From assembly GCA_963760605.1 (NCBI GenBank), contig CAVXFA010000058.1:14790-78789 (forward strand): a stretch of 64,000 nt of DNA, in the 5' to 3' direction. The position numbers were made by a program, and so were the translations under genes. Of the stretch, positions 1-21,702 are shown one piece after another. This DNA is from an uncultured delta proteobacterium. GTDB lineage: Bacteria > Desulfobacterota > SM23-61. Under the pieces are notes generated by a model. It was given only the letters and a program-made list of their open reading frames with translations. It was not told the origin of the DNA and did no database searches. Positions within the stretch are counted from its first letter, which is position 1. Every line of letters begins with the position of its first letter.

Positions 1-958
1 GGATATCTTCTTTTCGCTTGCGCAAAGGAGGAATGGTCAGGGGGACGACGTTGATGCGGTAGTAGAGGTCGGAACGGAATTCGCCCCGGGCCATCATTTC
101 TTCCAAATTTTTATTGGTCGCCGAGATCAGACGCACATCCACGCTGACCGTCTTCATCCCTCCCACGCGGACAAATTCTCGCTCTTGCAGGGAACGGAGG
201 ATTTTGGCCTGGGTAGGCAGGCTCAGTTCCGAGACTTCATCCAGAAAAAGGGTGCCCTGGTGGGCTAGTTCAAAATGTCCGATGCGCCGGCTCTGGGCGT
301 CGGTAAAAGCACCCTTCTCATGTCCGAAAAGTTCGCTCTCGATCAGCGTCTCGGGTATGGCCGCGCAGTTTACAGCCACAAAAGGTTTGTCTTTCCGCAA
401 GCTGTTGTAGTGGATGGCTCGGGCGACTAACTCTTTTCCCGTTCCGCTCTCCCCGTGGATTAAGACCGTCGAATTTTTCTCGGCGATTTGCCGAATGGTA
501 GAATAGATTTCTCGCATCTCTTTGGATTTGCCGATGATGTTATCGAAACGGTACCGCTCCGCTACCTCTTCCTGCAATCTTCGGTTCTCGATTTTTAGGT
601 CGCGACTTTCTAAGGCCTTTTCGGCCAACAACATCAGTTCTTCCACGTCGAATGGCTTGTTGATGTAATCATAGGCTCCAAGTTTCATCGCTTCCACGGC
701 GGTTTTTACCATCTTGGTGGCTGTAAGCATGACCACAGGAGTCAGGGGCTGAATCTGCCGGATTTCCTTCAGCATCTCCATGCCGTCCTTCTCGGGCATG
801 ATGATATCCAGAAAGATCAGGTCTGGTTCTTCCTTCTGGATCTTCTCCCAGGCCTCTGTGGAACTGCCAGCCAGGATCACCTGATAATCCTTCTTGAAGA
901 TCATCCGTAACGAATCCCGCACGCTCAATTCATCATCGACAATCAAAATCTTACGCAT
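1..958 (-). CDS. Sigma-54-dependent response regulator (REC + AAA+; NtrC/AtoC family), 3' end runs off the window
   Basis: Manual translation from ATG at 958 gives [25 protein letters not shown], then LIFLDIIMP (phospho-Asp), Walker A GESGTGKE, and [15 protein letters not shown]...GTLFLDEV. Absent from the ORF track because it is truncated by the window edge. Confidence 0.95.
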
Positions 959-2908
959 GGCTTTCCTTTATGGTTCCTCTCTCGGCTGAAATAGCCACTG
1001 GGAACCGAAGACGAATGGCCGTCCCGGCTCCTTCCCCTAAACTGACCCGCATCTCCCCCCCATTGCGCACCATCACCTTACGGGCCAGCGCCAAACCCAA
1101 ACTCCAATTCTCATACTCCAACCCTGCTCCCCCGCCCTCCTCTCGACGCATCCCCCGCAGAATCCCATTCTGACCCTCATACCAAACCCGCAACTCCACA
1201 AACCCCGGCCGACCCTCCCTACCCCTCCTCTCCCCCAACCCCGTTGACAACCGCAAGGACTTCTGCTCGCTCCCCTTCAAAAACACATGCCCCAAAACGC
1301 TCCGCAACACAAACCCCAACTGCACCTCATCAAAAAGTACCGCCGGCAACCCCTCCCCCAACTCGGTCACCCACCGCACCCCCCACTGATCTAACTCCTT
1401 CTCCTTCCGCTTGAGAACCTCCCCCAACCTGAAGTTCAAATCATTCCCCACCAACCGCGGAACCGAAAACTGCGTATACTCTAAAAGACTCTCCAAAAGC
1501 TCATTGATCCGCTTCACATCCAGGCTCACCAACCGAGAAAACTGCTCCCGAAACTCGGCATCCTCGTACTTCTCCGGCAGAAGATAAGCAAAAGTGCTGA
1601 TCGCTACCAAAGGATTCTTGATCTCATGGGCCAAGATCGAAAGAGTCGCGTCGAACAAGGACTTCCCTTCTTCCACCGGCAAGGTCGACAACGGCAAAAC
1701 CCCTTCCCCGGCCTGCTTCCCCTCCCCCAAAGAAGCCCATGCCTCCTCACCCGAAAAACTAAAAACCAAATCCTCCGGCAATACCAACTCCCCTTCCTTC
1801 AAAACCACCGACCGCAAAACCACACTCTCCAACTCCCGCAAATTCCCAGGCCAATAATACTGCTCCAACACCTGCAACGCCTCCAAAGAAAACTTCTTCC
1901 GCACCCAATCCCCCGACCCCTGCTCCTGCAAAACCTCACCCACCATCCGCGGAATCTCTTCCCGCCTCTCCCGCAACGGCGGCAAAACCACTCTCAATAC
2001 CTCCAAACCCTGATAAAGATCCCCCCGAAACCTCCCCGCCGATACCGCCCGAGCCAACGAAAACTTAGACGAAGATATCACCCGCACCTCAACCCCCATC
2101 CCCTCCCAACCAGGCCAACCCAACCCCTGACCATGCAAAAGATCCAAAAGAACCCCCTGCAAATCCCACCCTAAACTCTCCACCTCCTCAAAAAAAAGAG
2201 TCCCAGAAACACTCGCCCCACCCCCCCATCCGCCAACCAAAGGGCAAGCCTCTCCCGCAACCCCTCCACCGTCAACTCCCGACAAAAAAACCGCAAAAAC
2301 GGCCGACCCCTCCACGACCCCAACAAATGAATCGCCCTGGCCACCCCACTCCGACCCGTCCCCTCCTCCCCCTGAATGAATACCGGCAACGATGAACCCG
2401 CCACCTTCAAAACCCTCTCCCGCACCCCCACAGCCACCCGCGAAGAATAAAACCATGACTTGATCCGCTCTTCCACCGACAGAATCCGCCGCTCTCCCCC
2501 CCTCTCCTCCACCCAATCCCTCTGCAAAAGAAGCGCCTCCACCTTCTCCCGCAATGACTCCACCCCAAAAGGCTTGCTCAACCCATCACTTAAGGGCAAA
2601 ACAAACCTCTTCTCCCGCGCCACACCCTCCCCCATCAGCAAAAGAAGCGGCAACCGCGGCTGCACCTGGCGCAGAGCCCGAAAAAAAGACTCGTAAAAAA
2701 ATAGGGGCAGATCCACCCCCACCAGCACAATCTCCACCTCCTCCCGCCCCACCACCTCCAGGGCCTCGGGCAGATCACTCACCGTCAACACCACATACTC
2801 ATCCTTCAGGATCATCCAGAGCGAAGTGCGCACGCTGGAAGAAGAATCCACCACCAGCACTTTCCGCTTCCGCCCTTTATTTCGCAGGGCCACCCCGCCC
2901 TCCGGCAT
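951..2908 (-). CDS. Degenerate hybrid: pseudo-receiver + sigma-54-activator-like AAA domain + HisKA/degenerate HATPase; one frameshift near 2216-2227
   Basis: ORF 2171-2908 gives a receiver-like N-terminus ([20 protein letters not shown]) and [14 protein letters not shown] 951-2516 continues [11 protein letters not shown]..., [30 protein letters not shown]. The frames join in the C4-A-C7 tract at 2216-2227. Confidence 0.8.
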
Positions 2909-5012
2909 TCAACGGCAGATGGACGCGGAAACTCGTCCCCTTGCCCACTTCACTCTCCAAATCGATAAACCCCCCATGTTCATGGATGATCTGGTAACTG
3001 ATGGCCAAACCCAACCCGCTGCCCATCAGGCCGAGTGGAAAAAAAGGGATCGAAGATACGGTCTAAATTCTCCTTGGGGATCCCAACCCCTGTGTCCCGC
3101 ACTTCGATTTGAACGAACCGCTCGCTGGTTTCCTCTCGAAGTACCTGCACGACCCGGGTCTCAACCCAGATCTGCCCTTGCCCGGGGATTGCCTGGACGG
3201 CATTCAGGAGTACATTCAGCAGCACCTGTTTGATCTGTTCTGCATCCACCATGACCAGAGGGAGATGGGGGAGCAGTTCTTGGAAATCGTAATGTTCTTC
3301 TTCCGGGCTTCGGTGATAATCAAAAATTCCATTTTTTCGATGAGGGCATTCACATCTTCCCCGCGCAGATTGGGCTCCGAGGGCCGGGCAAATCCTAAAA
3401 GTTCGTTGATCAAGGTGGTAAGGCGGTCAATTTCCCCGGAGGCGACCTTGAGAAAATAATTACGAAACTCCTCATCCTCCAAACGCTCGGGAAGGAGCTG
3501 GGTAAAGGTTTTGATGGACACCAGGGGGTTGCGGATCTCATGGGCCAGACTGGAAATCAAAGTCCCCAGAGAGGCTAGGCGGTCCGCCCGACGCATGAAC
3601 TTCTGTGATTTTTTCAGATTTTCATAAAGGTTGGCGTTCTCAATGGCGATGGCCAGCTGGTTGGCCAGGGTATTCAGAAGGTCGAGGTCTTCTCGATAAT
3701 ACATCTCTTCCCGGCTCTTGTGCCCCAGGTTAATAAACCCGATCAACCGGTCCATATAAATAAGCGGCAAGCAGACTTCTGCCTGCAATCCAATCATCAT
3801 ATCCAAAAACTCTTTCTCTTCTCGCCGCCTCGGATTTCTTTCAATTTCGGCCCGGACAACCGCTTCCTTCTTTTCCTGCAGCCAGCGAATGCAGGGATCG
3901 CCGGACTTAAATGACGTATTCTCCAGATTATTCTCTGATGAGCCCCGCGCCAAGGCCGAACGAAAAATCTCTTTTTCTGGACGTAAAGGAAAATGGAGAT
4001 GCGCGACACCCCCATGCTGCGCTCCACTGTCTCGGCCAGCATGTGCAAAAGCCGATTCAGATCTACCATGGTCACCAGGCGCTTGCTGAAATTTGTCCAG
4101 AACCCGGTGGTAATAATATTTGTCTTTGACGATGATCTGTTGCATCGTCCGATCCATTCGCTCTTTGACCTTCTGGAAACTTAAAGCTGCCGCGACGCCG
4201 ACCACGAGGAGCAATAAAGAGAAGGATAAATCTGCTTGCTGGTAAAAATATTTTTCCAAAAAAATGATGATAAACATCGCAGGAACACCCAGAATGAATA
4301 TAGAAAAAATGTATGCCAGCCCCTTAGCCATGAAAAGACTTAGATCCATAAGGCGATGCTGGACGACGGAATAGACCGCAATTAAAAGGCCGATGCTAAC
4401 AACGACGCTTCCTAAAGGATAAACCCGCAACCCAAATACGGGCAAAAAGTTCAGGCTGCCCAGGGTAAAACTTACCCCGACGGCCAGAAAAAAGTACTTC
4501 AGCCTCTGCCGATGATAACTGTCGGCGTGAGTGTACCCCTGACCCATATACAAAAAGGCGATGAGGATAGCGATGATAAATTGGAAGAGGAAAAGATAGT
4601 ATAGAGGGCCACCTTTGAAAGAATATCCCCAAGGATAAACGATTAAATCTTCGATAAAGTAGCGGGTCGAACTAATCGCTGCCAGAACACCCGAGAGGCC
4701 GTAAAAAATCATAAGGATTCCCCTGCTTCGTCGGGAAAGTCCTTGGGGATTGGTAAAAAGAAAGGCAAAATGCAGGAAGGTCGGGGGAATGAAAAGAACC
4801 GGAATCCGGAAAATTCCTCCCCAAAGGTGAGCGAACTCAGCATTGGGACTGAGGAGGAGTCCGGCCCACTCAACGTTCCACAAAGAAACGCATAAAAGCA
4901 TGGTAGCAAAGGATTTATTAACTGGATTGGGCTGTTTTTTGGAGTAAATAAAAAGGCTCACGAGGAGATACGTTAAAGCGGCGATGATCGGAGGGAGGGC
5001 ATAGATGTTCAC
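2877..5012 (-). CDS. Membrane sensor histidine kinase (N-terminal multi-TM/7TM-type region, GAF, HisKA, HATPase_c), carrying about four indels
   Basis: Hydrophobic N-terminus, GAF-like [17 protein letters not shown]...LAIAIENA, and H-box LAHEIRNPL. HATPase pieces ([40 protein letters not shown]) lie in successive frames. Indels are near 4090, 3980, 3275 and 3023; the restored stop is at 2877-2879. Confidence 0.9.
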
Positions 5013-5134
5013 TTCATCTCTCCTTCACGGCGCAAAGGAGGAGGTGGCTGTGGCCCAGGAGTTTCCGGTGCGGGGGGAACCGCTCAGAGAATTGCTTATA
5101 AGAAAGAGCCATCAAATTCCACAGTCGCTTTGCC

Positions 5135-5885
5135 CATTCCCAGGGGCCGATAGACGGCGTGCAGGCCATCCTAATTCGACCAGTCATAATCGATCATGCG
5201 GTCTTCTTCCTCAACCTTTCTTTTTAACTCTGTTTCCAGCATAGGCATCAAAATGAAAAACTCCGCGTGGGCACCCTTTTCTCGAACTAAGAAATCCACA
5301 GGGTTAGGGAGTCGTTCCTCATCCTTGCCTAAATGAAGGGGTGCCTGCCCGCCCCACCGAAGTTTTAGGGGGATTAAAGCCTTGAAAAGCTCACGGGTGT
5401 AGGCCTTATTGCTTGACTATATTATCGTCAATAAAAAAGATTTTCTTGACATTGTCTTGCCTTATTTCTTGCGCCACTTCTTCCACCGGCCGGCATCGCT
5501 ATCTACCCTAAAAATTTTTGGTCGCCGAGCAAAATTCACAGTTAACAGGACGCCCCCTTCCAGCCCAAATTGGAAAGTTAATCTTCGAGGGGCGGTATCG
5601 GTCTTTTCTTCAACTTTTTTTTCCTCTTTTTTTGAATCCATCGCCAATCCGGTTAGCGCGAGGAGCTTGAGGAGTCATGAAACCAATGGACACTGGGTCT
5701 GCTGGATCGTCGAATGACACGTCTTCAAACAAAGTATTCATCAATGGTTTGAACCTCAAAATCTGCGGAAGTTAGGGAAGCCAGAAAAGGCAGGCTCAAG
5801 CGTGGGAACATTAATTTTTTTGGCTTTGTGAATTCTTTCTCCATCAATTAACTGGGGATGGTGAATCAACAATGATCTCAATATA
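5135..5885 (-). pseudogene. Decayed cobalamin-binding radical SAM protein
   Basis: Manual translation gives collinear fragments: KKLMFPRLSLPFLASLTSADFEVQTIDEY / EDVSFDDPADPVSIGFMTPQAPRANRIGDGFKKRGKK / GRGRPVNCEFCS (CxxxCxxC with first Cys to Arg) / RCRPVEEVAQEI..KIFFIDDNIV / NKAYTRELFKALIPLKLRWGGQ / VDFLVRE..FFILMPM..MIDYDWSN*DGLHAVYRPLGM. There are stops, frameshifts and internal deletions. Confidence 0.85.
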
Positions 5886-5913
5886 CCTATCCTCGAAGGA
5901 GTTCTTGAAAAGC

Positions 5914-7224
5914 TTATACCCTCCTATAAACCACCACCGCGTTTGTTCCCCCTAAGCCGAAGCAATTGGCCATGGCGATCTGAATATCTTTTTTTCTCGC
6001 CTCTTGGGGAACGTAATCTAGGTCTAATTCCGGGTCAGGAACTTCATAATTGATGGTCGGTGGAAGGACCCCTTCGCGTAAGGCCAAGCACGCTGCAATA
6101 CTCTGCATGGCGGTCGCTCCGGCCATTGCGTCCCCCGTCGCGGCTTTGATAGAACTTACAGCCAATTTATATGCGTGATCCCCGAATACTTTTTTAATCG
6201 CTTGACTCTCTTTTTTATCCAGTATGACGCCTGAATAAGCGTGTCCGCAGATATACCCGACATCTTCAGGTCTCAACGAAGTATGAGCCAGAGCAATTTG
6301 AAAGGCTTTGATTATATTCCCTGCTTCCGGGCTGAAGAAAATTGAGTCGGAAGCATCGTTGGTCAGCCCGAATCCGAGGATTTCGGCGTAAATCCTTGCT
6401 TCCCGTTTTTGGGCATGCTCCAATTCCTCTATGATCAAAGTTCCCGCCCCCTCCCCCAAAATATATCCTGTTCTTCTTCTGTCGTAAGGGCACATGGCTC
6501 TCTTAGGATCGCCATTTAGGGAAGTCATGGATTTGGAGGCAGAATACAATCCGAAGGTCAGGGGATAAATGGGCGTATCCGTTCCGCCGGCAACCAAAAT
6601 TTCCGCCAGGCCGCTGGAAATGACCTGGTATGCATTCACGATGGCCATGCTTCCCGAAGAGCACCCGGTAGAAACCGCCATATTATACCCATGAATTCTG
6701 AAAGCTTCCGCCAGCGCTCCAATCATGGCATTGTGGTTCATCAATCCCACGAAGGAGGGGTGGACCCGCTTCAGACCTCGTTCATAAAAAGTGGCTCCAA
6801 ATTTTTCATAGATATCCATAGGGCCCAATGCGGTCCCATAAATCAGACCTACCCGATAGGGGTCTTCCTTCCCCAAATCGAGGTTGGCATCTTCGATGGC
6901 TTTTTGGGTAGATACAATGGCGAATTGGGTTCCGCGGGAAAGTCGGCGGGCACTTTTGGGATCTATGTAATCCGTGGCATCGAAATTATTTACCTCCCCC
7001 GCAAACTTGCAGGGATAAGAAGAAGCGTCAAAATGGGTGACCATCCCTATGCCGCATCTTCCGGAGATCAAAGCCTCCCAGAAGGCCTCCTTGCCGATCC
7101 CGATCGGCGAGACGACCCCCACCCCCGTGACCACCACGCGCTTTGGCAGAACCGATCCTTTTTTCGTAGTGGACCTTTGGGAGAAGTTCTTGAAAAATGG
7201 CAGCTTCAAGAGACCGGACCCCAT
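5914..7224 (-). CDS. fabF: Beta-ketoacyl-ACP synthase II-like (FabF family) with atypical active site
   Basis: KRVVVTGVGVVSPIG, catalytic Cys in STGCSSG, first His in GHAYSG, and C-terminal NCFGLGGTNA. The second His position reads TGDAMAG. The true start may be near the PKRVVV segment rather than 7224. Confidence 0.85.
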   Translation of the reverse strand: MGSGLLKLPFFKNFSQRSTTKKGSVLPKRVVVTGVGVVSPIGIGKEAFWEALISGRCGIGMVTHFDASSYPCKFAGEVNNFDATDYIDPKSARRLSRGTQFAIVSTQKAIEDANLDLGKEDPYRVGLIYGTALGPMDIYEKFGATFYERGLKRVHPSFVGLMNHNAMIGALAEAFRIHGYNMAVSTGCSSGSMAIVNAYQVISSGLAEILVAGGTDTPIYPLTFGLYSASKSMTSLNGDPKRAMCPYDRRRTGYILGEGAGTLIIEELEHAQKREARIYAEILGFGLTNDASDSIFFSPEAGNIIKAFQIALAHTSLRPEDVGYICGHAYSGVILDKKESQAIKKVFGDHAYKLAVSSIKAATGDAMAGATAMQSIAACLALREGVLPPTINYEVPDPELDLDYVPQEARKKDIQIAMANCFGLGGTNAVVVYRRV

Positions 7225-19628: not shown

Positions 19629-20450
19629 CTAGATGGTTAAGTAACCTCCATCGACGGGGATGATGGCCCCGGTCACGTATCTTGATGCCTCCGATGCGAG
19701 GTATACCGTCGCCCCTTTAAGCTCATCCCCCTCGCCAAACCTCCTCATGGGGATGTGACGGAGAAGCTTCTCCCCGTGGTTTTCTAATACCCACTCGGTC
19801 ATGTCCGTGGGAAACCAACCCGGAGCAATCGCATTAACTCGAATGTTATATCCTGCCCACTTGGCTGCCAAGTCCTTAGTAAAGGCGATCAGGGCCCCCT
19901 TGCTGGCGCTATAAGCGATAGCGTCTGCGGCATCGGATTCCGTTCCGATCATTCCCATGATCGAGGCGATATTGATGATGTTCCCACTTTTCTGCCGGAT
20001 CATTACTCGACCGGCGATCTGGCAAAATAGGAAAACGCCAGTCATGTTGGTCTCCATGACTTTTTGCCAACCTTCCAGACGATACTCTTCCGGAGGAGCT
20101 CCCCAATTTGCTCCAGAATTGTTCACCAAGATGTCCAACCGGCTGAATTCTTTGAGGGTTGTATCCACCACGTTCTGGATATCCTTCGGAGATCTCACAT
20201 CACACGGAAACGCCAAAGTCTTCCCGCCCATTTTGGCGATTTCTTCCGCTACCTTCTGGCAATTTTCCAACTTCCTTGAACAGAGCACCACATTCGCCCC
20301 AGCTTCCGCCAAACCTTCGGCCATCTTCAACCCAATGCCCCTTCCTCCGCCCGTAACGATAGCGATTTTCCCGCTCAGATCAAACATTCCTTTAACATTC
20401 ATTCTGTCACTTCTCCTTTTTGTATAGGGTTCAAAGATTCTCGGGTTCAA
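19629..20450 (-). CDS. Short-chain dehydrogenase/reductase (gluconate 5-dehydrogenase-like)
   Basis: TGGGRGIG, NNSG, YSASK, NAIAPGWFPT. Confidence 0.92.
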   Translation of the reverse strand: MNPRIFEPYTKRRSDRMNVKGMFDLSGKIAIVTGGGRGIGLKMAEGLAEAGANVVLCSRKLENCQKVAEEIAKMGGKTLAFPCDVRSPKDIQNVVDTTLKEFSRLDILVNNSGANWGAPPEEYRLEGWQKVMETNMTGVFLFCQIAGRVMIRQKSGNIINIASIMGMIGTESDAADAIAYSASKGALIAFTKDLAAKWAGYNIRVNAIAPGWFPTDMTEWVLENHGEKLLRHIPMRRFGEGDELKGATVYLASEASRYVTGAIIPVDGGYLTI

Positions 20451-20503
20451 GACGCCAATGAAAAATACAGTATTTTACTTGACCCCGCGAATCCTAGAAC
20501 CCT
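20426..20503. repeat. Intergenic inverted repeat (GGGTTC..GATTC.CGGG..CAAG / CTTG.CCC..GAATC..GAACCC)
   Basis: Imperfect inverted arms of about 25 nt flank an A/T spacer. Confidence 0.5.
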
Positions 20504-20518
20504 CGATTCCCATTTCTT

Positions 20519-21487
20519 TCAGATAAACCGTATGATCCTTGACCCGCGCCTCTGGTCCAAGCGATGAATTCCCTCCTCCCGGGCCAGAGTCACAGCCTCT
20601 TCGTACTCTGCATGGGTCACTCTGCGATTCAGGGGAGGGTTTTCTCGGGCCTCTCCACAGGGCCGGTATTGGGGCATGACATTAACATAGGTATGGGGTG
20701 AAATTTCTCGGGCCAAGAAGCGCATCGCTTCGCGTGTCCCAGCCAACCCGCCGGGCAAAACCAAGTGCCGAATCAAGAGGCCACGCTCGGCAATGCCCCG
20801 GCGGTCGATCACCAGATCTCCAACCTGCCGGTGCATCTCTTTGATCGCCGCCTTAGCTCTCTCCGGGTAATCTCGGGCGCAGCAGAACTTATCAGCAACT
20901 TCTCCGTCCATGAACTTCAAGTCCGGCATGTAGATATCGAAGACACCGTCTAGAAGCTTGAGCGTTTCCACCGAATCATACCCGCCCGTGTTGTAGACCA
21001 GCGGAACCCGCAGCCCTCCCGCAACCGCCTGCGGCAGAGCGCTCAGGATCTGGCCCACGGCATGAGAAGGAGATACGAAATTGATGTTATGGCAGCCCAT
21101 CTCTTGCAGGCTCAGCATCATCTTGGCCAATCGGTCCGTAGGGACCTCTCGCCCCTCCCCCAGGTGGCTGATTTCATAATTCTGGCAGAAAAGGCAGAGA
21201 AGATTGCAATGAGTGAAGAAGATGGTCCCCGACCCTTTAACTCCTACCAGGGGGTCCTCCTCGCCGAAATGGGGGCTGTAACTTGAAATAACGGCCAGCA
21301 TGCCCGTACGGCAAAAGCCTTTTTCATCGGAGGTGCGGTTCACCTCACATTCGCGAGGACAAAGACGACAGGATGTTAGAACTGCCTTAGCCCGAGACGC
21401 TCGCTCTGCGAGAGTTCCTTTCTGAAAAAGGCCTAAGTAGGCCGGCTGGAAAATCTCTTCTCTGTAATCTTTCTTCACAACAACCAT
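20519..21487 (-). CDS. Radical SAM protein, PflX-like
   Basis: CRLCPREC, CNLLCLFCQN (CxxxCxxC), YNTGGY, LLIRHLVLP, NVMPQYRP. Confidence 0.9.
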   Translation of the reverse strand: MVVVKKDYREEIFQPAYLGLFQKGTLAERASRAKAVLTSCRLCPRECEVNRTSDEKGFCRTGMLAVISSYSPHFGEEDPLVGVKGSGTIFFTHCNLLCLFCQNYEISHLGEGREVPTDRLAKMMLSLQEMGCHNINFVSPSHAVGQILSALPQAVAGGLRVPLVYNTGGYDSVETLKLLDGVFDIYMPDLKFMDGEVADKFCCARDYPERAKAAIKEMHRQVGDLVIDRRGIAERGLLIRHLVLPGGLAGTREAMRFLAREISPHTYVNVMPQYRPCGEARENPPLNRRVTHAEYEEAVTLAREEGIHRLDQRRGSRIIRFI

Positions 21488-21525
21488 TTCACTCTTCTAC
21501 TTACGACCCATAATCCTAAAAGAAA

Positions 21526-21702
21526 AGGTTGCTGAAAAAGGGGGCTTTTCGCTACTCCGGATATTCTTACGATCGGCTCATCGCGATTATGGCTCGCGTC
21601 GCTGAAAAATCACTCATTTTTCGGGCGCTTTTCTCCGCCCTGTGCTGTTCCTGGAAAAATAGACTCACGCTCAAAGCTGCTTTTTGACTTTTTCGGCATC
21701 CT
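21526..21702. mobile_element. MITE-like element with IS-type terminal inverted repeats, overlapping the 3' end of the upstream gene
   Basis: Left end AGGTTGCTGAAAAAG; right end CTTTTTCGGCATCCT (reverse complement AGGATGCCGAAAAAG); no transposase. Confidence 0.6.

Follow-up and report, generated by a model that had tools for sequence, protein, structure and literature searches.

ChpT of Caulobacter and Spo0B of Bacillus are histidine-kinase-like phosphotransferases with a dead catalytic and ATP-binding (CA) domain. NifL is a histidine-kinase-like protein without kinase output that stands beside a sigma-54 activator and acts on the AAA+ domain of NifA by protein-protein contact. NtrX and VpsR join a receiver to a sigma-54-type AAA+ fold that is unable to contact sigma-54, keep their helix-turn-helix (HTH) and act as sigma-70-type regulators. 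As for duplicated genes, Abdulkarim and Hughes reportedly described in 1996 how tufA and tufB evolve in concert by gene conversion. Concerted evolution of this gene pair is also the subject of Paulsson et al. (2017, PMC5485169), and Dierksheide et al. (2026, PMC13323073) described a purine bias of bacterial coding strands that is due to Rho avoidance. Here, we analysed a stretch of 64,000 nucleotides from an uncultured delta proteobacterium (contig CAVXFA010000058.1 of assembly GCA_963760605.1; hereafter the window), which at 951-2908 carries a gene fusing a receiver-like, an AAA+, a HisKA and a CA-like domain. An earlier note on this DNA had read the gene as a triple pseudo-enzyme that keeps only the phospho-acceptor His and could serve as a partner of the adjacent kinase or activator. 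The reading that we favour, with moderate confidence, is that the gene belongs to a conserved family of hollow enzymes, that its two copies in this genome have been converted and driven towards G and T, and that the window copy is most likely non-functional.

We refer to the genome of the window as G000, to the window contig and its copy as C58, and to the contig with the second fusion copy as C36; other G-numbers are genomes, and P-numbered copies and L-numbered loci include metagenome contigs. The features of the fusion gene and its repeat are the following.

951 to 2908, minus strand: frameshifted copy of the fusion gene with receiver-like, AAA+, HisKA and CA-like domains (open reading frames, Pfam, 97.6% identity to the intact C36 reading frame)
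2223 to 2224, no strand: deletion of one nucleotide that splits the fusion reading frame (alignment with the C36 copy; a T is absent and a run of seven G remains)
2540 to 2860, minus strand: pseudo-receiver domain (Pfam Response_reg at 29-31 bits, straddling the 30.2-bit cut-off)
1752 to 2434, minus strand: sigma-54-type AAA+ domain with its lid (Pfam, alignment; nearest solved structures NtrX, NtrC1, NtrC4 and VpsR)
1470 to 1643, minus strand: HisKA domain, the dimerisation and histidine phosphotransfer (DHp) domain (Pfam HisKA; H box LAHEIKNPL at 1634-1608, His428 at 1626-1628)
990 to 1451, minus strand: degenerate CA (HATPase-like) domain (sub-threshold HATPase_c, alignment column counts, AlphaFold model, structural match to ZraS)
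949 to 3042, no strand: duplicated segment of 2.1 kb, equal to C36:43986-46079 (blastn 97.6% over 2095 bp, unrelated flanks)

The gene appears as two overlapping open reading frames (ORFs) on the minus strand. The first, 2908-2171 (245 amino acids), holds Response_reg and the beginning of Sigma54_activat, and the second, 2516-951 (521 amino acids), holds the remainder of Sigma54_activat, AAA_lid_14, HisKA and a sub-threshold HATPase_c. Because a single T is absent between 2224 and 2223 relative to C36, the two ORFs are one split gene; the paralogue reads GGGGTGGG where the window copy reads GGGGGGG, both as assembled. The first ORF opens with an ATG at 2908, which the orthologues do not have, and a GTG at 2893-2891, preceded by the Shine-Dalgarno sequence GGAGG at 2903-2899, is likely the true start. 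At the other end, the fusion stop overlaps the ATG of the downstream ntrC by 8 nucleotides (nt). With Pfam cut-offs of 30.2 bits for Response_reg, 20.2 for PF00158, 26.9 for PF00512 and 26.4 for HATPase_c, the window copy scores 31 for Response_reg, 57 for AAA_lid_14, 33 for HisKA and 15.8 for HATPase_c. Over the window copy, the C36 copy and the orthologue in G001, PF00512 ranges from 32 to 42 bits and HATPase_c from 15.8 to 22.7 bits. In the latter two, PF00158 reaches 62-66 bits, as against 250 bits for the neighbouring NtrC, and AAA_lid_14 58-68 bits. Pfam found no HTH_8 DNA-binding domain, HisKA coming directly after the AAA lid, and no NCBIfam equivalog came near its cut-off (best 136-140 bits against cut-offs of 558-714).

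An AlphaFold (AF2) monomer model, built from an alignment of 60 sequences (mean predicted local distance difference test score, pLDDT, 77.8), predicts the receiver and AAA+ folds with confidence; in the receiver, pLDDT is about 90 for the greater part of residues 15-135 and falls to about 70 around 91-110. The predicted chain continues through a disordered linker (385-417) into a two-helix DHp hairpin (411-479) and a CA-like alpha/beta domain, whose lid residues 584-600 are disordered (pLDDT <50). Residues 1-390 match NtrX and VpsR best, and the C-terminal half matches the cytoplasmic domain of ZraS best. The N-terminal half resembles an NtrC/NtrX-type receiver-AAA+ module and the C-terminal half a ZraS/AtoS-type DHp-CA module, and a tandem duplication running from within a kinase gene to within a regulator gene would yield such a chimera and the observed gene order.

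Full-length orthologues were found by whole-genome searches in uncultured, Syntrophaceae-like Thermodesulfobacteriota of the same family. All native loci that we examined, in at least five genera, have a kinase gene (seven transmembrane helices, 7TM, with GAF, HisKA and HATPase), then the fusion, then the gene of an activator with receiver, AAA and HTH. Metagenome contigs keep this order and often extend it to ketosynthase, kinase, fusion, NtrC and DUF1848. More distant matches that seemed full-length (in Pelagibacterium, Sumerlaeota, Acidobacteriota and others) were rejected, as the search had merged a kinase gene with the ntrC gene next to it. More than 100 clusters of the family are in the protein database, under generic annotation only, such as 'sigma 54-interacting transcriptional regulator', and we found no description of this chimera family in the literature.

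We aligned 106 members, each of at least 480 amino acids, and compared the window copy with them. The observation made in the earlier note holds: all motif strings that it quoted are present on the minus strand of the window, VVDSSSS and VLVGVDLP in ORF 2908-2171, DLYQGL and LAHEIKNPL in ORF 2516-951. The H box at 1634-1608 is intact, as the note had said, and across the family L426, H428, E429, K431 and N432 are invariant in 106 of 106 members and P433 in 105. In the pseudo-receiver, a dispensable domain that about half of the members lack, the phospho-Asp position of the window copy is indeed Gly, as it is in 52 of 52 receiver-bearing members, 36 of which have Asp at +2. Of the acidic pair one Asp remains, D-S/P replacing DD. 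The window copy also keeps KPF, whose Lys is retained in 50 of 53 members, and the Thr/Ser position of beta-4 is Gly or Glu in the family. In the AAA+ domain, the Lys-to-Arg change in Walker A (GEEGTGRS, 2371-2348) was confirmed. Walker B of the window copy reads EE, and both the GAFTGA loop and the second Arg finger are gone. Across the family the Walker A position is Lys in 51 and Arg in 34 of 106 members, the second Walker B residue varies (Glu 44, Asp 28, Gly 15, Asn 13), sensor II Arg is found in 33 of 106, and the second Arg finger is lost. The missing GAFTGA region corresponds to a deletion of 11 residues relative to the neighbouring NtrC, shared by all aligned orthologues. The G1 and G2 glycines of the CA-like domain have disappeared family-wide, N-L-S or N-L-A-L replacing G2, and there is no DxGxG. 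The missing N-box Asn (GH at 1292-1287), in contrast, is confined to the window copy: the paralogue has Asn there, as do 71 of 106 members, usually with Glu before it, and the N-box Asn residues are retained in 71-86 of 106.

The ratio of non-synonymous to synonymous substitution rates (dN/dS), which the note had proposed to determine among orthologues, indicates purifying selection at 0.05-0.2 where composition is normal (G001/G014, 0.215; G010/G006, 0.054). Orthologues in the clade with the compositional skew described below give 0.26-0.45, probably an overestimate because their silent sites converge; the gene has thus not died in every member of the clade. Because the orthologues show neither canonical motifs nor a variable His, the catalytic residues of AAA+ and HATPase varying around a His that is constant in 106 of 106, and because they are under purifying selection, a role centred on the His box is the natural reading for the family. 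Judged from these sequences, a partner role of this type (phosphotransfer, phosphatase or scaffold) is plausible. The invariant HEIKN contains the phospho-acceptor His as well as the HExxN motif, which HisKA kinases use for phosphatase activity, and autophosphorylation is unlikely since the ATP lid is missing. The family protein would then rely on its DHp helices and be a kinase-dead phosphatase or a phospho-acceptor for the downstream NtrC-type regulator, or alternatively a DHp partner of the kinase. Its inert AAA+ domain, lacking GAFTGA and not needing nucleotide, would dock to or cap the AAA+ assembly of the regulator.

The family is a new variation on histidine-kinase-like pseudo-kinases and on NtrC relatives without GAFTGA. 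Its predicted likeness to ChpT and Spo0B lies in the DHp hairpin with a conserved His, the modelled alpha/beta domain without ATP-lid glycines and its place as a gene of a two-component pathway. Unlike these proteins, with which it has no detectable sequence relationship, its C-terminal half is nearest to ZraS/AtoS-type HisKA kinases, it adds a pseudo-receiver and an inert sigma-54 AAA+ domain, and its phosphotransfer is only putative. With NtrX and VpsR it shares a receiver and a sigma-54-type AAA+ fold unable to contact sigma-54, but it has DHp-CA instead of their HTH, and its Walker A and B motifs are not conserved. The pair of NifL and NifA offers a functional analogy only, that of a histidine-kinase-like protein without kinase output beside a sigma-54 activator. 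Whereas NifL has PAS domains, a nucleotide-binding GHKL domain and an H-domain His that is dispensable, the fusion has an invariant His box and a paralogous AAA+ domain as its candidate docking module.

The repeat that holds the fusion begins ~134 nt before the end of the kinase gene and stops 2 nt beyond the fusion stop, and the C36 copy is an open frame of 652 codons (C36:43988-45946). Behind the C36 copy lie ORFs with 70-75% amino-acid identity to a 736-residue HEAT_2 protein encoded downstream of copy P0037 on contig L142, and the displaced locus appears to be older than a species split. Since L142 ends 167 nt upstream of its fusion gene, the status of P0037 as a displaced copy is inferred. 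On L145, the displaced 5' junction lies at almost the same base and the contig ends at the 3' repeat border, and the native contig L033 ends 28 nt after the fusion stop, so that contig breaks or junctions fall at the same repeat borders in L033, L142 and L145. C36 and P0037 have 61% protein identity with a synonymous divergence (dS) of ~0.65, whereas C36 and C58 are 97.6% identical in nucleotides. The native P0017 is 84-85% identical to the displaced P0033 and P0037, which are 83% identical to each other. The copies thus cluster by genome and not by locus, and therefore evolve in concert by gene conversion; in the C36/C58 pair, the paralogues within one genome are more alike than the orthologues at the same locus. 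As with tufA and tufB, dispersed copies are near-identical while orthologues diverge, and the differences between copies are patchy. Unlike in tuf, the converted gene here is a dispensable signalling gene whose protein sequence has been dragged along, and the published tuf work is, as far as is known, about homogenisation and not about strand-asymmetric rewriting to G and T.

The state of the window copy has to be judged together with its two neighbours.

2877 to 5012, minus strand: cognate 7TM-GAF-HisKA-HATPase kinase gene, broken (ORFs, Pfam, tblastn against orthologous kinases)
2 to 958, minus strand: NtrC-type sigma-54 activator with receiver, AAA and HTH, 455 amino acids, running off the window (ORFs, Pfam)

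The kinase gene carries at least four indels. Two segments, ~4080-3960 and ~3265-3005, are out of frame, each entered and left by compensating frameshifts; the second, in which there are stops, takes away the stretch of the ATP-binding domain from N to G1. One of the indels is absent from the kinase tail in C36 and thus postdates the last homogenisation. Between the two fusion copies of G000 there are 44 differences, spread almost evenly over codon positions 1, 2 and 3 (13, 17 and 14), with a dN/dS of 0.89. Both copies have derived replacements at otherwise invariant sites, I193V, L423I and A609V in C36 and Q349E and N541H in C58, and the window copy has the frameshift and the N-box change EN>GH in addition. 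On this sequence evidence, the native module is most likely decaying in G000 and the window copy is most likely a pseudogene, whereas the C36 copy may or may not still be used.

The earlier note had instead proposed a phosphotransfer, scaffold or dominant-negative partner that heterodimerises with the adjacent kinase and/or activator. In G000, such a protein, active and either pairing with a kinase or capping the NtrC ring, would be made from the C36 copy; the window copy could supply it if its frameshift were bypassed or an error of the assembly. Such a partner finds support in the H box, intact in both copies and invariant in the family, in the 652 codons of the open C36 frame, in the dN/dS below 1 (0.26-0.45) of the skewed clade and in the intact downstream ntrC. 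However, the near-neutral divergence between two copies that have both changed at otherwise invariant sites and the stops and indels of the cognate kinase speak against it, and the lost base is a T within a G run, which is not a simple error of homopolymer length. We therefore regard an active partner in this genome as unlikely, though the best placed of the alternatives. The note's interpretation is partly supported, being reasonable for the family and probably wrong for the window copy, given the frameshift, the dN/dS of 0.89 and the broken kinase.

We return to the converted gene, whose composition is unusual. The sense strand of 951-2908 has A 0.16, C 0.14, G 0.43 and T 0.27, with a GC skew of ~0.5 that turns on and off within ~100 nt of the ends of the fusion gene, and third codon positions have G 0.62, T 0.23, A 0.07 and C 0.08. 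The G+T fraction at third codon positions (K3) has a mean of 0.51 (standard deviation, sd, 0.043) over 2,677 ORFs of at least 200 amino acids in G000, and among real genes only the two tuf genes, which encode EF-Tu (0.93 and 0.91; 0.92 and 0.90 when taken from stop to stop) and the fusion (0.85) exceed 0.8. Codon choice is identical in the fusion and in tuf: four-fold boxes favour NNG, Y pairs NNT, Leu TTG and Arg CGG. In the tuf operons, the ribosomal-protein genes, fusA and rpoBC are ordinary (K3 0.48-0.61), and the kinase and ntrC genes that flank the fusion have ordinary composition in every lineage. The fusion itself is skewed in some lineages, normal in others and intermediate in a few, with the following K3 values.

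G000: 0.85
P0002: 0.88
P0032: 0.85
P0017: 0.84
P0037: 0.82
G005: 0.83 and 0.77 (two ORFs)
P0107: 0.75
G002 and P0005: 0.63-0.66
G001, G014, G010, G006, G013, G015, G007, G011 and G016: 0.48-0.55

For tuf, K3 is high in all 12 family genomes with a tuf match (0.78-0.94) and patchy across the phylum (0.37-0.85), where the values of at least 0.78 (G042, G046 and G057; 0.78-0.85) all come from genomes with two tuf genes. The tuf genes of G000 lie at C96:4090-5286 and 20364-21560 (L025 and L013) and have G 0.67 and T 0.25 at third positions. The next outlier in G000 is an ORF of 234 amino acids at C108:14816-15517 on the minus strand (K3 0.77), with no Pfam match in its N-terminal 68 residues. The next highest values belong mostly to transposases and REP-associated tyrosine transposases (0.64-0.72, 3-5 sd above the mean), which are likewise multi-copy genes.

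Substitutions in the G000 lineage were polarised against four normal-composition orthologues and are strongly directional: A changed to G 109 times and G to A 5 times, C to T 46 times and T to C 13 times, T to G 31 times and G to T 5 times, and C to G 23 times and G to C 4 times. Ancestral A was replaced in 80% of cases at position 3 and in 22-26% at positions 1 and 2, from which it follows that the force acts on all codon positions and is filtered by selection at the protein level. Sites that do not vary among the outgroups have undergone, among others, the replacements K>R (11), E>G (7), A>V (7), I>V (6), N>S (4) and D>G (3). All nine orthologues of normal composition whose sequence reaches the site have the Walker A Lys, whereas G000 and G002 have Arg there. 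Part of the 'dead enzyme' picture of the window copy is thus a by-product of the composition drive, and Walker A K>R and N-box EN>GH are recent by-products of strand-asymmetric G/T enrichment rather than design. This origin of some motif losses, together with the gene-converting pair of copies, the frameshift with near-neutral divergence and the broken kinase, is what the earlier note overlooked.

The skew is bound to the repeat rather than to the ORF. It extends to the final 45 codons of the kinase gene, which belong to the repeat but are read in another frame and have K3 values of 0.63 in C58, 0.67 in the C36 fragment, 0.85 in P0037, 0.62 in P0017, 0.73 in G002 and 0.64 in P0005, versus 0.31-0.56 in seven normal lineages; kinase bodies have 0.47-0.56 everywhere (C58, 0.53-0.55). 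In tuf, homology between the copies stops at the ORF borders, so that repeat and ORF coincide there. As for the fusion, its two copies differ at 44 places, and these fall where K3 is lowest (local 0.711 versus 0.849 overall, permutation p<1e-4), also when only interior codons are considered (0.795 at differing codons versus 0.878, p<1e-4). The zones of low K3 are both ends and codons 401-425. The latter, at window 1633-1707 on the minus strand just upstream of the H box, have a K3 of 0.60 and hold 8 of the 44 differences. Conversion from the H box of the neighbouring kinase was rejected as the cause of this dip, the two regions being 52% identical in nucleotides.

Taken together, in the model that we favour the repeat was copied to a second locus in G000, and gene conversion keeps the copies at 97.6% identity. 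The sense strand of the repeat has moved towards G>T>>A,C at every codon position, within the limits set by protein constraint and with a signature shared with duplicated tuf. Replacements of the types K>R, E>G, I>V, N>S and D>G, that of the Walker A Lys included, result from this drive. We tentatively suggest that a repeat-associated, strand-asymmetric process, for example keto-biased gene conversion or damage to the strand that recombination between dispersed repeats exposes, rewrites long-lived duplicates in this direction. Under such a process, and with the same reserve, tuf could be seen as showing only the synonymous footprint, its protein being frozen; the polarised non-synonymous changes in tuf are too few to be informative. 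As far as we searched the literature, duplicated genes rewritten to G and T are undescribed.

Several points weigh against this reading as a whole. The C36 copy retains its open frame of 652 codons and could be functional, although an open frame is weak evidence either way in A-poor DNA, which has few stops in any frame. The proposed phosphatase or phospho-acceptor and docking role was inferred from conservation alone. An origin of the chimera by tandem duplication from this very gene pair is only marginally favoured: among paralogues of the N-terminal half, the NtrC next to it scores best by 163 versus 156 bits, and the comparison with the kinase is spoiled by frameshifts. Two copies may exist in G014, whose composition is normal. 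The skew of G005 (K3 0.80) and P0107 (0.75) comes with neither a skewed kinase tail nor a second copy in the data, and G002 and P0005 at 0.63-0.66 likewise show no second copy; incompleteness of metagenome-assembled genomes or independent events with other borders could explain such single-copy skewed cases. The trees of the neighbouring genes do not settle whether the skew arose once: support at deep nodes of the NtrC and kinase trees is below 80, the normal genus g8 falls inside a clade supported at 91/93 with the G000 and G002 groups, and G005 and P0107 fall outside. Causation may also run in reverse, G-rich DNA prone to form G-quadruplexes (G4; 13 motifs) provoking the recombination.

Among the other explanations of the skew, Rho avoidance comes first, although we consider it improbable. 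C-poor, G-rich RNA would be selected so that the transcript reads through to ntrC, and tuf would be protected similarly. Rho is encoded in the G000 genome. Rho targets are determined mainly by an excess of C over G that extends over more than 150 nt, and the avoidance of Rho, a published force on the composition of coding strands, leaves its mark on codon as well as amino-acid usage (PMC13323073). In its favour, the force seen here acts on all three codon positions and is filtered by protein constraint; in both cases, an excess of G over C on the sense strand influences synonymous and amino-acid choices along entire ORFs. However, the bias due to Rho avoidance is genome-wide and favours purines (A+G), whereas the skew described here is confined to two repeat families and is of the keto type (G+T). 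The enrichment of T is a further difficulty, as T-richness favours Rho in B. subtilis. The co-transcribed fusA, rpoBC and ribosomal-protein genes, the kinase body and ntrC are unskewed, the skew tracks the repeat borders, including the kinase tail and the displaced copy with no ntrC behind it, and the strong Shine-Dalgarno sequence at the fusion start gives no sign of poor translation.

A mutational asymmetry associated with transcription, in which damage to the non-template strand, perhaps in R-loops that a G-rich sense strand favours, runs away in certain genes without duplication, seems slightly less probable still. The sense-strand changes A>G and C>T are the classical directions of deamination, the sense strand has 89 runs of three or more G and the 13 G4 motifs, and the native operon copy has the stronger ongoing bias, with 12 changes towards G/T and 5 away. 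G005 and P0107, skewed without evidence of a second copy, also suit this explanation. Deamination does not explain why T>G and C>G are likewise strongly directional, and four-fold sites move to G rather than to a mixture of G and T. Neighbours in the same transcription unit are normal, and the borders of the skew coincide with those of the repeat.

Codon adaptation, with G- and T-ending codons preferred as in tuf under very high expression or a special tRNA regime, agrees with the codon choices identical to tuf and with the full set of C34 tRNAs but is already largely refuted and very improbable, because ribosomal-protein genes, fusA and rpoBC use genome-average codons (on which ground we rejected translational selection), T-ending codons are preferred to C-ending ones in every Y pair, even where only G34 tRNAs do the reading, non-synonymous sites share the direction and gain the costly Trp, and the skew spills into the kinase tail in another reading frame.

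As to what the repeat-associated drive and the hollow family would mean, the family is a natural experiment on how pseudo-enzymes evolve: in this chimera of a sigma-54 activator and a histidine kinase, both ATPase sites are free to decay, whereas nine residues that surround the phospho-His never change. A third component of the signalling from kinase to NtrC that works through DHp only, be it a phosphatase, a phospho-sink or a ring cap, would be a new wiring element in the sigma-54 regulons of syntrophic Thermodesulfobacteriota. More surprising to us is a composition drive bounded by the locus, with 85% G/T at silent sites versus 51% in the operon neighbours, which is common to duplicated tuf, has the same extent as the repeat and is linked to concerted evolution. 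If the proposal is correct, the fusion would be the first case that can be dated against single-copy orthologues, with intermediate stages (K3 0.63 to 0.88). Its drive would also have crossed the ORF border at the edge of the repeat and overridden protein constraint enough to erase catalytic residues. If it held generally for recombining repeats, it would amount to an unrecognised mutational or conversion bias that can mimic codon adaptation and foreign origin and drag protein sequences along (K>R, N>S, D>G, I>V). Such a bias would confound calls of 'dead' enzymes from motifs, dN/dS estimates and phylogenies of duplicated genes.

Some minor observations concern the surrounding genes. The NtrC neighbour, intact on the full contig (window 2-958, minus strand; C58:14608-15750), carries GAFTDA in the loop that contacts sigma-54, where GAFTGA is canonical. 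Locus L146, from a metagenome relative whose fusion (P0031) is skewed, has its ntrC at 2703-4070 split into a receiver ORF of 130 and an AAA-HTH ORF of 324 amino acids. A FabF-like ketosynthase gene lies upstream of the kinase in L032, in L141 and at 5914-7224 of the window, and a DUF1848 gene lies downstream of ntrC in L030, L032, L141 and L146; the arrangement suggests that the three-gene signalling module is part of a larger unit. Downstream of the C36 copy, the HEAT_2 gene is split into at least four ORFs in L144 (G000:C36:37000-44100), at 5583-6242, 5093-5731, 4628-4933 and 4000-4707 on the minus strand, where L142 has a single ORF of 736 amino acids.

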